From an uncultured Verrucomicrobiaceae bacterium (GTDB lineage: Bacteria; Verrucomicrobiota; Verrucomicrobiia; Verrucomicrobiales; Verrucomicrobiaceae): DNA of 64,000 nt. A program made the translations under genes and the position numbers. Below are positions 31,862 to 64,000 of the stretch, piece after piece. The notes under the pieces are model-generated. The model saw nothing but the letters and a program-made list of their open reading frames with translations. It ran no database searches and was not told where the DNA came from. How positions within the stretch are numbered: position 1 is the stretch's first letter; each line of letters starts with the position of its first letter. The stretch is taken from the NCBI GenBank assembly GCA_964538625.1, contig CAZIGH010000026.1:4902-68901 (forward strand). Reading direction: 5' to 3'.

Positions 31862-33148
31862 ATGAACCCTGCAAGCCGTTCCCCCAAACGAATCGCCATC
31901 ATCGGAGCCGGTCCCGCCGGAGCCACGGTGGCCTGCCTACTCGCCCGGGCTGGAAGGGATGTGGTGATGCTGGACAATGGGAAACGCCCCGAACTCGTAG
32001 TGGGCGAGTCACTGGTGCCGCTGCTGGTGAACGTGTTTCGGCGCATGGGCATAGAGGAGCAAGTGGCAGCTCTGGGTGTTTACAAGCCCGGGGTGACCTG
32101 GGTGATCGATGAGCATGATGCACTGGAACTGGCTTTCGAAGCGATGCGCGGCGTGCTGCCCACCTACGCCTACAACGTACCGCGCCGCGAGTTCGATGAC
32201 TTGGTGCATGACACTGCACTGCAAGCCGGTGCGAGACACATCCCCTGTGAGGTCCACCTGGAGAAGCGAGAAGTCGAACGCGGTGGAGAAGTGATACCGG
32301 TTCTGGCCGAGGAGACGCTGAGGCTGATTCCGGAGTGGAATGGCGAGCAGCCGGACCTGCTCATAGACGCCAGCGGACGGAGGAGAATGTTTGCGAAGCT
32401 GCTGCACCTGGGCGCTGACGTAGGGCGGCGGAAGGATGTGTCGCACTTCGCTCACTTCGAGGGTTGTGAGATGCCCCGGCCCGCCGGTCAAACGGTGATC
32501 ACGCGTCTGAAGCATGGGTGGTCCTGGCGCATTCCGCTGCCCGGACGTCTCTCCGTGGGAGTGGTGATGAACAAGGATGACGCCAAGCGCTATGGCAACA
32601 CGCCTGAAGAGCAGCTGGATGGGGTCATGGATGGGAACCCGGTTCTGGCCGCTGCATGCCGTCAGCGCCGCCGCGTTTCGTCCGTGGCCACGTATGCCAA
32701 CTACCAGCTGATCTCACACCGTGGCTGCGGGGCCAACTGGGTAGCCGTGGGTGATGCTTTTGGGTTTGTGGACCCCATGTTGTCTCCTGGGCTGTGCATG
32801 GCTATGACTTCTGCGGAAAAGCTGGCGGACACCATTCTGGAGGGCGGACGTCTGCGGGAGGGCTTTGAGCGCTACCTGAGTTGGTTCCGCCTCCAGCTTG
32901 CAGCGTGGCAGGAGCTGATCGACTTCTTTTATGACGGCCGCATGTTTGCCATGTTCAAAACCGGCAACGAGATGAACATGAAGTATCCAGGGAAAATCAG
33001 CACGCTCATGCAGCGCCACATCGAGAAGAACCTGGCCGGCATGGCGGGGGGTGAATACACGGCCAGGACGTATTCCAGAAACCTGCTGCGTTTCATGGGC
33101 AGTTACGGCATCCGCGGCTATGAGCCTGCGGATTATGCCATCGTCTGA
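31862..33148 (+). CDS. Flavin-dependent halogenase (PltA/CndH-like short form)
   Basis: IAIIGAGPAGATVA (GxGxxG). GESLVP...GVYKPGVTW with the Lys codon at 32084-32086. GWSWRIPL = WxWxIP (32519-32536). FVDPMLSPG = FxxPxxSxG (32765-32791). At ~428 aa there is no Trp-binding C-terminal module. Confidence 0.75.
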   Translation: MNPASRSPKRIAIIGAGPAGATVACLLARAGRDVVMLDNGKRPELVVGESLVPLLVNVFRRMGIEEQVAALGVYKPGVTWVIDEHDALELAFEAMRGVLPTYAYNVPRREFDDLVHDTALQAGARHIPCEVHLEKREVERGGEVIPVLAEETLRLIPEWNGEQPDLLIDASGRRRMFAKLLHLGADVGRRKDVSHFAHFEGCEMPRPAGQTVITRLKHGWSWRIPLPGRLSVGVVMNKDDAKRYGNTPEEQLDGVMDGNPVLAAACRQRRRVSSVATYANYQLISHRGCGANWVAVGDAFGFVDPMLSPGLCMAMTSAEKLADTILEGGRLREGFERYLSWFRLQLAAWQELIDFFYDGRMFAMFKTGNEMNMKYPGKISTLMQRHIEKNLAGMAGGEYTARTYSRNLLRFMGSYGIRGYEPADYAIV

Positions 33149-34014
33149 CAGACCTCTGCATTCCGAAGCACCTCAGCGGCGCGGATGCCAGAGGCGCGTC
33201 CTGCCTCGATGAGGCTGGGGCGCTGCTTGTTCGGAAAGGGTCTTGGGTGCGGGGTCTGGGTGACGATGTCGATGATGCGTTTGCCGCTGCGTTTCGCCTC
33301 TACCAGGCGGAGCTGAAAGATGGTCTCCGAGATGATCTGGTGGCTGATGGCAAAGCCGGTGGACAGGGTGGGCCACTTGGTGACCAGCTCCGTGCCGCGT
33401 TCATGTTCGATACGGTGCAGGATGATGGTGTGAATGCGGTCATCCTCAAGCCAGTGGCTGAAGGGCACAGCCATGGCCACGCCACCGTCACACCAGCGCT
33501 CACCATGGATGACTTGGTTGCAAAACAACCCCGGTATGGCGCTGCTGGCTACCGCGAATGCGACGGCATCTCCCGCATCAACGATCTCACAGTCCCGCCG
33601 TGTGAGATTGGCTACGGCAAACTGGACCTGCGGAGCACGAAAGCTCTCCAGGCGCGGACTGCCGAGATGCGAACGCAAGTACTTCACCGCATTGCTGCCC
33701 GAGAGAATGCCAGAGGAATACATGCAGGTGGCCACGCCTGGAAAACGAAGCGGAGCAAGCCAGTCCCAGAAGCAGGTGCGCATGCCCGGCTGCATGACGA
33801 AGTCCACCAGCGCATCACCCCGGATACCAGAGCCGCAAAGCAGAGCGGTAAGCGCGCCGGACGAGGTGCCGGCGATCTGGGTCGGCAGCACACCAGCCTT
33901 GTGAAGTTCTGCCATAAATCCGGAATGAGCGTAGAAACCGAAAAAGGCGGAGCTGAGCGCCACGGCCACACCTTCGCCAGATGAGGAGCCGTTCACGGGA
34001 GGAGATGAGATCAT
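33133..34014 (-). CDS. Patatin-like phospholipase with degenerate glycine-rich motif
   Basis: GTSSG (GxSxG) and CDGGV (DGG) catalytic dyad motifs. The usual GGGxRG oxyanion loop reads SSAFFGFYAHSG. The start is at ATG 34014; the longer ORF start at 34116 would overlap the aldolase gene. The 3' end overlaps the halogenase 3' end by 16 nt. Confidence 0.7.
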   Translation of the reverse strand: MISSPPVNGSSSGEGVAVALSSAFFGFYAHSGFMAELHKAGVLPTQIAGTSSGALTALLCGSGIRGDALVDFVMQPGMRTCFWDWLAPLRFPGVATCMYSSGILSGSNAVKYLRSHLGSPRLESFRAPQVQFAVANLTRRDCEIVDAGDAVAFAVASSAIPGLFCNQVIHGERWCDGGVAMAVPFSHWLEDDRIHTIILHRIEHERGTELVTKWPTLSTGFAISHQIISETIFQLRLVEAKRSGKRIIDIVTQTPHPRPFPNKQRPSLIEAGRASGIRAAEVLRNAEVCQTMA

Positions 34015-34078
34015 GAAAGGGATTTGAGAACAGGTGTCTGCGGCGCACGTCGAGTGCAAGCCAGTTCTCCGGGAGGCA

Positions 34079-34801
34079 TCACTCTCGCGCCGCCGCGAGA
34101 AGACGTTGGTATCCATTTCGCAGCAGCCCCACGTCAGAGTCCAGTGCGAGCCAGTTGAATCCCAACGCCCTCAAGTGCGCATGGTCCGCCATATCCCGCA
34201 CGAGGATGCCCGCAGCCTTGTGATGATCTTTCGCCGCTTTCACCACGCGTTTCAGGCACTCCTCATAGGTGCGGGCGGAGTGGTGCACTTTGAGGTCAAA
34301 GGTGAGATCCGCCGGCCCCACGAAGAGGGCGTGAATGCCACTGACTGCGGCGATTTCATCTGCGTGCTCTACAGCCTCAAGGGTTTCGATCTGCGCGATG
34401 ACGACGGGCGGAGCCGTTTTTTCATCCGGCGGCTTGAGACCGTAAGCGTAAGCCGGAACCGTTCGCGAGTAACCTCGGCGGCCCAGTGGCGGGTAGTTGG
34501 CGGCGCGGACGCACTGAAAGGCGTCTTGCACTGAGTTTACATGCGGCACCATGATGCCGTGTGCTCCCCAGTCGAGCACACGACCTATGACATCCTGGTT
34601 CGGCGCGCCCACCCTGACGATGGCGCGTGTGCGTGTGCTGCGCAGGGCGCGCATTTGTCCCGGCAGCGCCGCTTCTGGTTCGCACCCGTGCTCCAGGTCT
34701 AGCAGCACCCAGTCAAATCCACACATGGCCGCCAGCTCGGCCACTGCGGGTGATCCAAACGACAGCCATGTACCCAGCAGCTCCTCGGAAGCATTCATCA
34801 T
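34079..34801 (-). CDS. HpcH/HpaI family aldolase (2-keto-3-deoxy-acid aldolase-like)
   Basis: GFDWVLLDLEHG, RVGAPNQDVIGRVLDWGAHGIMVPHV, YPPLGRRGY, VIAQIETLEAV, LFVGPADL. Confidence 0.85.
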   Translation of the reverse strand: MMNASEELLGTWLSFGSPAVAELAAMCGFDWVLLDLEHGCEPEAALPGQMRALRSTRTRAIVRVGAPNQDVIGRVLDWGAHGIMVPHVNSVQDAFQCVRAANYPPLGRRGYSRTVPAYAYGLKPPDEKTAPPVVIAQIETLEAVEHADEIAAVSGIHALFVGPADLTFDLKVHHSARTYEECLKRVVKAAKDHHKAAGILVRDMADHAHLRALGFNWLALDSDVGLLRNGYQRLLAAARE

Positions 34802-35066
34802 GAGCTGATGTCAGCATTTTGATGGAGGCCTTGCAAGGCTTTGTCGATGCGGGCGTGGGTGAACTTTCGCAAATCCTGACCGCTGGAGCCGCTGCCGATG
34901 AGGAAGAAGCCATCATCCCGCTCGAAGTAGCCCGCACCTACGCGGATGACGGCTTTGACGAGCATGTTGCGCAGGAGATGCAGCCAGAAACGGCGACGGT
35001 GCTCGGGCGGCAGCGGGCGGATGCTTTGGTAACCTTCAAGCGCCAGCTTCAAGAACCGTGCATCGT
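34601..35066. repeat. Tandem duplication, copy 1 (466 bp)
   Basis: Base-for-base identical to 35067..35532 by my comparison. The junction is ambiguous by 1 nt (T at 34600/35066/35532). Confidence 0.95.
34798..35066 (-). pseudogene. Orphan 3' fragment (~88 codons + stop) of the APH-fold kinase gene, created by the duplication
   Basis: Encodes ...DDARFLKLALEGYQSIRPLPPEHRRRFWLHLLRNMLVKAVIRVGAGYFERDDGFFLIGSGSSGQDLRKFTHARIDKALQGLHQNADISS, identical to the C-terminus of 35264..36337. Confidence 0.85.
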
Positions 35067-35267
35067 CGGCGCGCCCACCCTGACGATGGCGCGTGTGCGT
35101 GTGCTGCGCAGGGCGCGCATTTGTCCCGGCAGCGCCGCTTCTGGTTCGCACCCGTGCTCCAGGTCTAGCAGCACCCAGTCAAATCCACACATGGCCGCCA
35201 GCTCGGCCACTGCGGGTGATCCAAACGACAGCCATGTACCCAGCAGCTCCTCGGAAGCATTCATCAT
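35049..35267 (-). pseudogene. 5' fragment of the HpcH aldolase gene (67 native codons + 5 junction codons, TMHGS, then stop)
   Basis: MMNASEELLG...RAIVRVGAP is identical to aldolase residues 1-67. It keeps the native ATGA overlap with the kinase stop (35264-35267). Confidence 0.85.
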
Positions 35268-35532
35268 GAGCTGATGTCAGCATTTTGATGGAGGCCTTGC
35301 AAGGCTTTGTCGATGCGGGCGTGGGTGAACTTTCGCAAATCCTGACCGCTGGAGCCGCTGCCGATGAGGAAGAAGCCATCATCCCGCTCGAAGTAGCCCG
35401 CACCTACGCGGATGACGGCTTTGACGAGCATGTTGCGCAGGAGATGCAGCCAGAAACGGCGACGGTGCTCGGGCGGCAGCGGGCGGATGCTTTGGTAACC
35501 TTCAAGCGCCAGCTTCAAGAACCGTGCATCGT
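35067..35532. repeat. Tandem duplication, copy 2 (466 bp)
   Basis: Identical to 34601..35066. The ORF track shows identical 74-aa ORFs at 34713..34937 and 35179..35403, offset by 466. Confidence 0.95.
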
Positions 35533-36337
35533 GGAAGCAGGCCAGGAGCGAGAGGTCATCCATGGAGTCACCGCTGATGGCGTCATCGAAGTCAATGAAC
35601 GCGGCGATGTGGGTAGTAGAACCGAGGATGTTCCAGAGGGCGAGGTCTTTGTGAACCAGACAGCCCTCTGCAAGTGGCAGAAGACCTTGGTGCTCGGAGA
35701 TGGCATCACGGATCTCGGCGCACTTGGTGGTGCTGAGAAACGACTTCTCGCTGAGGAAGTGTAGATGCTGCTCCAGCCGGGTGAAGAAATAGCCTTCGTA
35801 GCACTCATGTGAGCCGACCAAGGAAGCCTCGTGGCCGAAACTGAGGGGGCCAAAACCGGTAAAGCGCAGAGCCTGCCACCGGGCCACTGCGGCACCGATA
35901 TGGGGTGCTACCAACTCTATCTCAAGCGCTCCTGACTTGAACCAATGATTCAGATCCGGGAAGGGGATGCGTTCCATGAGCTGCCAGGCAAATGGCAGCT
36001 CGGCGCGTGAGGCATCCACTGCGTGAACGCAAGGCACCTTGACTCCAGTACCTCCAACGGCCTGCATGACAGCAGATTCCACTTGGAGATGCCCGTCCGC
36101 TTCTGGCCCATCCTCCACGCGCAGAAACAACTCTTTTCCGTTCACCAGTGCGTTCCAAGTGAGGTGGTTCCCCTGCGAACCGGACGGGGAGAGTCGGATG
36201 TCCGGGCCAATGCTGCGCTTGGTCAGAGCCGCGATCAGTTGCCGTTCCATCTGTGCCACTGGCGAACGTGCAGCCTGGGTGCCATGAAAGGCGGCAGGGC
36301 GGTCGCACTTCCAATAGTAGATGTCTCTGCGGCTCAT
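35264..36337 (-). CDS. Aminoglycoside-phosphotransferase/choline-kinase-fold small-molecule kinase
   Basis: Brenner motif LVHKDLALWNIL and IDFDDAISGD. The start is at ATG 36337 (MSRRDIYYWK) and overlaps the transporter stop (ATGA). The upstream 317 codons of tracked ORF 35264..37288 are an out-of-frame shadow of the transporter gene. Confidence 0.8.
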   Translation of the reverse strand: MSRRDIYYWKCDRPAAFHGTQAARSPVAQMERQLIAALTKRSIGPDIRLSPSGSQGNHLTWNALVNGKELFLRVEDGPEADGHLQVESAVMQAVGGTGVKVPCVHAVDASRAELPFAWQLMERIPFPDLNHWFKSGALEIELVAPHIGAAVARWQALRFTGFGPLSFGHEASLVGSHECYEGYFFTRLEQHLHFLSEKSFLSTTKCAEIRDAISEHQGLLPLAEGCLVHKDLALWNILGSTTHIAAFIDFDDAISGDSMDDLSLLACFHDARFLKLALEGYQSIRPLPPEHRRRFWLHLLRNMLVKAVIRVGAGYFERDDGFFLIGSGSSGQDLRKFTHARIDKALQGLHQNADISS

Positions 36338-37314
36338 GGTGGGGGGGTGCGGCGTTTCCACCAGGCGGCGATGAGTCCTCCGACGATGTTCTGCATGACG
36401 CCGCTGAACACGGCGGCAGCTGCGGCGAGCGGCATGGCGGGGAAGTGCTCTTTCGCGAGCGAGGCGGCCATGCCTCCATTCTGCATGCCCACCTCTATGC
36501 TCACGGTGCGCGCTGCCGTCTCGGGGTAACGGACTGCTTTGCAGACAGAGTAGCCCACGGCGAACCCGAGAATGTGAAGCAGCAGCGCGGCAGTGGCCAG
36601 CCTTCCGAAGTTCTGCGCTATGGCATCTGCGCTCGCGGCTACGATGCCGCCGCTGACCAGGGTGAAGGCGATGACGGCAATGGTAGGCCCGCAGGCACCT
36701 ATCTTGTCCGCAGCCTTGGGCAGCTTCCAGCGAATCAAAACGCCAATCGCCACGGGTGCCACGACGAGCTGGAGAGCGGAGAGGCACATTCCCCACTGGT
36801 CCACAGGCACCAGCTTGCCCGCGAGTGCAGCGGTCCACAAAGGGGTGAAGACAAACGACAGCACGGTGGAGCACAGGGTGAGCACCACGGACAGGGCTAC
36901 GTTTGCGCGGGCGAGGTATGAGATCATGTTGGACGCCATGCCGCCCGGACAGCTCGCCACGAGGATGATGCCGACGGCGAGCCCCGCCTCCAGCTGCATG
37001 AGCATGGCTACAAGCCAGCCGCAAAGGGGCATGATGGTGTATTGTGCGGCGAATCCCACGGCCACCGCTCCCGGCATGGATGCCACTGCCTTGAAGTCCG
37101 CGATGCTGAGTGTGAGGCCCATGCCCAGCATGGAAGCGGCCAAGGACCAGAAGATCCATGGCTTGTCGAACCAGAGCATGGTCTCCGGTTTGATGAACGC
37201 GATGACTGCCAGCGTCACCAGCCACAGGGGGTAGAGGTTGTTGAACCAGTGGAAGAAGCGAGTCATCTGTGAGCTGGGGCAGTGACAACGTGCCTGCTGG
37301 GCGTTTTCCATCAC
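36334..37314 (-). CDS. Bile acid:Na+ symporter (BASS/SBF) family transporter
   Basis: FHWFNNLYPLWLV..., GLILVASCPGGMASN, VSIEVGMQNGGMA are typical BASS signatures. Start candidates are GTG 37314, ATG 37311 and ATG 37266. Confidence 0.85.
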   Translation of the reverse strand: MMENAQQARCHCPSSQMTRFFHWFNNLYPLWLVTLAVIAFIKPETMLWFDKPWIFWSLAASMLGMGLTLSIADFKAVASMPGAVAVGFAAQYTIMPLCGWLVAMLMQLEAGLAVGIILVASCPGGMASNMISYLARANVALSVVLTLCSTVLSFVFTPLWTAALAGKLVPVDQWGMCLSALQLVVAPVAIGVLIRWKLPKAADKIGACGPTIAVIAFTLVSGGIVAASADAIAQNFGRLATAALLLHILGFAVGYSVCKAVRYPETAARTVSIEVGMQNGGMAASLAKEHFPAMPLAAAAAVFSGVMQNIVGGLIAAWWKRRTPPP

Positions 37315-63011: not shown

Positions 63012-64000
63012 ATGGCCAAGGCACCCAAAAACACGGACAGCGATTCTGATTCCGGAACAAAGAAACTTGCCGAGGCACGTGCCAGAAACCTGGACCTCGC
63101 CATTCAGCAGATTCAGAAAGATTATGGCGAAGGTGCCATCCTCCGCATGGGAGACAATACCAAGCACGAGGTGAGCGTCATCCCCACCGGGAACCTGCTC
63201 ATTGATCAGGCGCTCGGCGTGGGCGGGTTCGCACGCGGTCGAATCATCGAGATCTTCGGACCGGAATCCTCCGGTAAGACGACCCTCACCCTCACCGCCA
63301 TCGCCCAGGCACAGAAGGCCGGCGGTCTGGCCGCGTTCATTGATGTGGAGCACGCACTGGACCCCGCCTATGCCCGTAGGCTCGGCGTCAATGTGGACGA
63401 GCTGCTCGTCTCCCAGCCGTCGTCTGGTGAGGAGGCACTGAGGATTTGTGAAACCCTCGTCCGCTCCAATGCCCTTGATGTCGTCGTGCTGGACTCCGTC
63501 GCGGCGCTTGTCACCCGGCAGGAACTGGAGGGTGAGATAGGAGACTCCACCGTGGGAGCACAAGCCCGCCTCATGAGTGCCGCCATGAGAAAGCTCACCT
63601 CCATCATCGCCAAGGCGCGCACTTGTGCCATCTTCACCAACCAGATCCGTGAAAAGATCGGCGTCATGTTCGGCAATCCCGAGACCACACCGGGCGGACG
63701 CGCCCTCAAGTTCTACTCCTCCGTGCGCGTGGACATTCGCCGCATCGGAGCCATCAAGTCTAGTGATGGCACCGTCACCGGCAACCGGACCAAGCTCAAA
63801 GTGGTGAAGAACAAGCTCGCACCACCCTACACCGAGGCGGAGTTCGACATCATGTACAATGAGGGCATATCGACCATCGGCAGCCTCCTGGATCTCGCAC
63901 TTGAGTTCGACATCCTCCAGAAGCGCGGTTCATGGATCAGCTACAATGGCACCCAAGTAGGTCAGGGCCGGGATGCGGTGAAAGACATCCTCAAGGGCGA
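63012..64000 (+). CDS. recA: Recombinase RecA (3' end beyond the window)
   Basis: Absent from the ORF track. My translation gives ...[88 protein letters not shown]... Confidence 0.97.

Follow-up and report, generated by a model that had tools for sequence, protein, structure and literature searches.

The boundary between the kinase and aldolase genes of a minus-strand operon in an uncultured Verrucomicrobiaceae bacterium carries a perfect tandem duplication of 466 bp. We think that it arose as a spontaneous short-junction (that is, homology-independent) tandem duplication, that it is recent, and that most or all cells of one hot-spring population have it; to this reading as a whole we would give a probability of roughly 0.85. 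The window (the whole stretch of DNA analysed, 64,000 nucleotides) corresponds to positions 4902-68901 of contig C26 of the genome (G000), which is 5.02 Mb long, in 85 contigs, and 96.7% complete.

The two copies lie head-to-tail and abut directly, with no spacer. An earlier sequence-only reading of the window had claimed that 34601-35066 and 35067-35532 agree at every base, with a single nucleotide (T) of homology at the junction, and both claims are confirmed. A script comparison finds every base identical, and the longest run of matches is 467 nt long (34600-35066 = 35066-35532, period 466, 100% identity), the one base that the two ends of the unit have in common being T on the plus strand and A on the coding strand (34600 = 35066 = 35532). 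Tandem Repeats Finder likewise reports 2.0 copies of period 466, with 100% matches, 0 indels and a score of 1866, and the repeat search of the window returns the same copy spacing of 466. Chance cannot account for a perfect match of such length. The copies and their junction are placed as follows.

34600..35066, plus-strand coordinates: copy 1 of the unit, promoter-distal for the minus-strand operon; base 35066 (T) also begins copy 2.
35067..35532, plus-strand coordinates: copy 2 of the unit, promoter-proximal, 100% identical to copy 1.
35037..35095: novel junction, unit end to unit start; the plus strand reads ...GTGCATCG-T-CGGCGCGCC...

All genes of the operon are on the minus strand, in the order transporter, kinase, aldolase stub, kinase tail, aldolase, patatin.

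36334..37314, minus strand: SBF/BASS-family transporter, first gene of the operon (PF01758, E 8e-41; TIGR00841-like).
35264..36337, minus strand: APH-fold kinase, intact, 357 codons (PF01636 (APH), E 9e-16).
35049..35267, minus strand: aldolase stub, 72 codons; HpcH residues 1-67, then T-M-H-G-S and a stop.
34798..35066, minus strand: orphan kinase 3' fragment; residues 271-358 and the stop (88-codon tail).
34079..34801, minus strand: HpcH/HpaI-family class II aldolase, intact, 240 codons (PF03328, E 4e-34).
33133..34116, minus strand: patatin-like phospholipase, last gene of the operon (PF01734, E 4e-20); overlaps the 3' end of the aldolase by 38 nt.

One breakpoint lies within codon 270 of the kinase, the other immediately after codon 67 of the aldolase. 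Because the duplicated segment is internal and spans the gene boundary, kinase and aldolase each keep one intact copy, and no intact gene has been gained or lost. The kinase ATG overlaps the transporter stop (ATGA), the kinase TGA overlaps the ATG of the stub (ATGA) and the TGA of the kinase tail overlaps the ATG of the intact aldolase (ATGA); the last two of these stop-start overlaps are copies of one ancestral overlap. The stub matches HpcH_HpaI over residues 10-66 (and HpcH residues 1-68 by tblastn), and its T-M-H-G-S ending is kinase-derived sequence read in another frame. The orphan tail is without the catalytic part of the APH domain; its frame can be extended upstream as far as a GTG at 35151, giving a 117-aa ORF for which the profile search returned no family match. 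As for the intact enzymes, the aldolase is GarL/HpaI-like, yet it scores far under the equivalog cut-offs, and the kinase has no NCBIfam match. The sequence-only reading had described this anatomy (intact kinase, aldolase stub, orphan kinase tail, intact aldolase) exactly, and the recA gene that it had noticed in the window is indeed there, toward the 3' end, with a GPESSGKT motif at 63258 on the plus strand.

In the whole genome the unit is found at these two sites alone. A genome-wide scan for near-tandem exact repeats (5.02 Mb) gives the 466-bp duplication as the largest, and as the sole perfect one with a period above 112 nt; we reject a systematic habit of the assembler of making such repeats, given this absence of any other perfect tandem of period >112 nt.

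The same genome holds other exact arrays of short period, at C65:22008-22398, C23:28673-28932 (period 112) and C38:4861-5132 (period 105), together with arrays of period 94-95 at C31:1-218, C66:1-249 and C2:186796-187024, two of these last three being at contig ends. The arrays of period ~95 may be CRISPR-like, or may belong to a repeat family at which the assembly breaks.

One alternative, already raised from the sequence, is an artefact of assembly or library, in which there is one true copy and the second comes from a mis-traversed graph loop or from chimeric reads. In its favour, the genome is a draft obtained from a metagenome, in 85 contigs and at a low word depth (~8-9x), and short k-mers alone are unable to resolve a perfect repeat of 466 bp. 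The data that bear on it are the Logan contigs (k=31) of X1 and X2, metagenome runs made on two hot-spring samples of one study (in X5, from the same study, the organism is absent), which hold 94-98% of the region's sampled words. These contigs were built independently of the genome's assembler; the genome itself was probably assembled from X1 and X2, which makes this support assembler-independent, not sample-independent, and it is contig-level, with no single molecule seen to span both copies.

The contigs of X1 and X2 show zero differences from the window. The left-flank contig of X1 extends to 34629 (depth 8.61) and the right flank begins at 35503 (depth 8.87); in this run the unit forms its own contig of 467 bp (34600-35066, depth 15.4), and a contig of 59 bp exactly covers the novel junction, 35037-35095, at a depth of 10.3 against 8.8 for the flanks (~1.2x). 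In X2 a single contig of 496 bp (34600-35095, depth 13.9) comprises unit and junction, between flanks of depth 8.29 and 8.41; the junction is merged into the unit contig in this run, and a separate junction depth is available from X1 alone. The contig breaks in both runs fall exactly where a tandem repeat of two copies forces a de Bruijn graph to break. Since the contigs hold the junction, its k-mers must have been in the reads of both runs. This weakens the artefact considerably: a graph loop requires junction k-mers in the reads, and both runs, each from a different sample, have them, with an X1 junction contig at a depth similar to that of the flanks. Read depth, which had been proposed as a check, points the same way, the unit being at 1.75x its flanks in X1 (15.4 vs 8.8) and 1.67x in X2 (13.9 vs 8.3); these values are not 2x, but they are far from 1x in either run. 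The 5.02-Mb assembly, finally, has no second duplication of the kind. An artefact is thus very unlikely, and the duplication is genuine, not the invention of an assembler.

How many copies there are per genome is judged from depth only, at ~8-9x, with ratios (1.67-1.75) somewhat under 2. Under a simple model, the fraction of genomes bearing the duplication would be 0.73-0.75 from the depth of the unit and ~1.2 from the X1 junction; by a rough estimate that assumes reads of ~150 nt, these values lie within about one sampling SD per run of a fixed two-copy state. A minority (~25%) of one-copy cells could be present in X1 and X2. One could also imagine a population that is not uniformly two-copy, but combines cells with higher-order amplification and cells with a single copy (three copies and one copy, for instance). 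The graph and the depths (unit ~1.7x, junction ~1.2x) constrain averages only, so that a mix of cells with one, two and three copies would fit equally, and short units can amplify readily (PMC12607827). Such a mixture is nevertheless less parsimonious, selection would have no reason to favour extra copies of two gene fragments, and the averages are near those of a uniform two-copy genome; we consider it highly improbable, and retain the simpler view of a two-copy genome in most or all cells.

Comparison with relatives indicates that this two-copy state is derived. In X3 (wastewater), a relative is represented by a contig of 673 bp in which 26 of the 595 aligned positions differ from the window (~96% identical). 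It extends from 34472 in the left flank across the entire unit, up to 35066, and then directly into the right flank (35533 onward); past the unit, 27 of 30 positions match the right flank, versus 7 of 30 for the duplication junction. This is the single-copy arrangement. At a greater distance, the SBF transporter, APH-fold kinase and HpcH aldolase follow one another in this order in all 11 family-level loci (L004-L014, 54-82% amino acid identity), and in each of these 11 genomes both kinase and aldolase are present once, at full length and without intervening fragments; where the relative is closer, the kinase stop overlaps or adjoins the aldolase start. (A patatin gene was not detected within the ~1.5-kb flanks of the 11 loci.) No junction is seen in X6, X7 and X8, which have relatives at 85-90% identity or nothing, with contigs that cross the outer boundaries without spanning the whole unit. 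Look-ups of exact products in public assemblies gave no record for the junction-specific 72-aa stub or for the intact aldolase, although those of this genome itself may be missing there, and a scan of metagenome contigs with the aldolase gave distant relatives only (<=55% identity).

With a single copy in the X3 relative and in the 11 family genomes, the duplication therefore postdates the split from the ~96%-identical relative, and there are zero substitutions between its copies across 466 nt. These observations support the view that it is derived, evolutionarily young and specific to this lineage. A recent event was among the possibilities first put forward, and the comparison with sister strains suggested at that time favours it: every relative that could be resolved has one copy, and none has a diverged second copy.

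In a genome of the same genus (G001, C11; L010:2704-3312), the APH kinase and the HpcH aldolase are separated by a gene for a 202-aa AhpC/TSA peroxiredoxin (PF00578, E 8e-38), which is read from the opposite strand. The kinase/aldolase boundary thus seems to be a tolerated insertion point in this genus, and the presence of a gene at this place would therefore mean that tight coupling is dispensable in the lineage.

Coming to the origin of the duplication, the longest direct word common to the two breakpoints within +-40 nt is 5 nt long (6 nt for inverted words), which agrees with the illegitimate, non-homologous origin proposed from the sequence, and the repeat search of the window found no other repeat flanking the unit. 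Unequal crossing-over by RecA between pre-existing repeats is excluded, there being no flanking direct repeats and because the breakpoints have no sequence in common beyond the single base. Ku-dependent NHEJ is unlikely as well: no match to the Ku domain (PF02735) was found in the 96.7%-complete genome, and the B. subtilis control was detected. Tandem duplications with 0-1 bp of junction microhomology are documented in bacteria, and such junctions are usually ascribed to a replication template switch or to illegitimate sister-strand exchange (bioRxiv 10.64898/2026.05.22.727201). Applied to our case, this would mean that, in a single-copy ancestor, a nascent strand or a broken end reached kinase codon 270 and was rejoined at aldolase codon 68 of the sister or template strand, ~466 nt from there, guided by 1 nt of homology only and without need for RecA. 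Template switch and illegitimate exchange cannot be told apart from the product alone; one or the other is the likely mechanism.

One of the breakpoints (A, in the region 34600-34640) is followed immediately by GGCGCGCC, a palindrome of 8 nt, and by a GC-rich stem (CGGCGCG...GGCGCGTG), for which a hairpin is predicted. Such a hairpin could favour replication stalling or a template switch, a speculation to which we give no weight.

What might the duplication do to the operon? The net change is an insert of 466 nt, made of two gene fragments, between a kinase and an aldolase that were ATGA-coupled. Ribosomes ending at the kinase TGA would reinitiate on the 72-codon stub and would stop 250 nt upstream of the true aldolase start, whose ATG would now follow a kinase tail without evident translation (in the 15 nt before this ATG there is no motif resembling a Shine-Dalgarno sequence). 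Coupling is probably diverted onto the stub, with a lower translation of the aldolase, and possibly also a lower output of the patatin. The idea that coupling has been broken or rerouted is a reasonable one to draw from the sequence, and the net effect would be polar, and neutral or mildly deleterious.

The sequence-only reading had argued that perfect tandem duplications are lost rapidly, and that the identity of the copies must hence reflect recency, selection or an artefact. Recency has stood up, whereas rapid loss was overstated for a unit of this size. In P. aeruginosa, the loss rate of engineered duplications of 2.6-3.3 kb is only ~1e-4 per generation (at 2.6 kb), their half-lives being thousands of generations, and it falls as the unit becomes shorter (PMC12607827). 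A unit of 466 nt should thus be lost slowly and its persistence needs no selection; the copies would be identical because the event is young and short units are lost slowly.

It could still be argued that the duplication, although real, is kept frequent by selection, either because a lower or uncoupled expression of aldolase and patatin is useful or because the repeat acts as a reversible expression switch that RecA can collapse. The duplication is frequent in two samples, the depth ratios suggest that ~73-75% of the genomes carry it (possibly a mixed population), recA is present, and a role as agents of genetic memory has been suggested for short tandem duplications (PMC12607827). However, the depth deficit on which a mixed population depends is, by the rough estimate given above, within sampling noise; both genes are intact and the dosage of intact genes is unchanged, so that no benefit is obvious; the duplication does not recur, being found in 0 of 11 relatives and not in the 96%-identical one; and drift or hitch-hiking would be enough to bring a slowly lost unit of 466 bp to high local frequency or fixation. 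We find selection in this general sense very unlikely. In its most elaborate form, the duplication would be a selected and reversible rheostat of the operon, the stub diverting ribosomes and lowering aldolase and patatin, collapse by RecA restoring coupling, and the fraction of ~0.75 corresponding to the coexistence of both states; this we hold to be very improbable. A young duplication that persists by its slow loss, with drift or hitch-hiking, is the explanation that we prefer.

Short-junction, RecA-independent tandem duplications have reportedly been studied by the Roth and Andersson laboratories in Salmonella and E. coli. Junctions with 0-3 bp also occur in duplications of Pseudomonas fluorescens SBW25 populations (bioRxiv 10.64898/2026.05.22.727201). 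The present case resembles the short-junction class in being head-to-tail, without a prior flanking repeat, with a junction of 1 nt and a single-copy ancestor, and the same mechanisms can be proposed for it. It differs from those usually studied, which are of kilobase to megabase size, in being only 466 bp long, and in containing no complete gene, so that operon architecture is altered and not dosage; and it is found in a wild metagenomic population, unlike cases selected in the laboratory. A second comparison is with the pneumococcal type 3 capsule gene cap3A, which undergoes phase variation by spontaneous intragenic tandem duplication. The cap3A duplications are also small, with little homology at the junction, and precise reversion by recombination between copies is possible in both systems, but in cap3A the duplication disrupts the ORF and switches the phenotype off, whereas here both ORFs are intact and neither a phenotype nor recurrence is known. 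With the engineered duplications of P. aeruginosa (PMC12607827) our case has in common a short perfect tandem unit and slow loss; those were constructed, with a junction marker and whole genes, whereas this one is natural and ~5-fold shorter.

All this makes it an ordinary, textbook-type short-junction tandem duplication, of an already known kind, which reveals neither a new element nor a new mechanism or function. All that sets it apart is its tiny size, its position across a coupled gene boundary and the fact that it was caught in a wild population. For the quality control of metagenome-assembled genomes, it illustrates that a perfect short duplication can be checked in an independent assembly through its junction k-mers and the depth of its unit, with no need of raw reads. 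For annotation, two ORFs, the "aldolase" one of 72 codons and the one of 117 codons, are remnants of the duplication, to be flagged as such and not counted as genes. For the organism itself, what we have here is a clean natural micro-duplication, independent of homology and caught before its copies diverged, which rearranges a coupled operon and destroys neither of the two genes.
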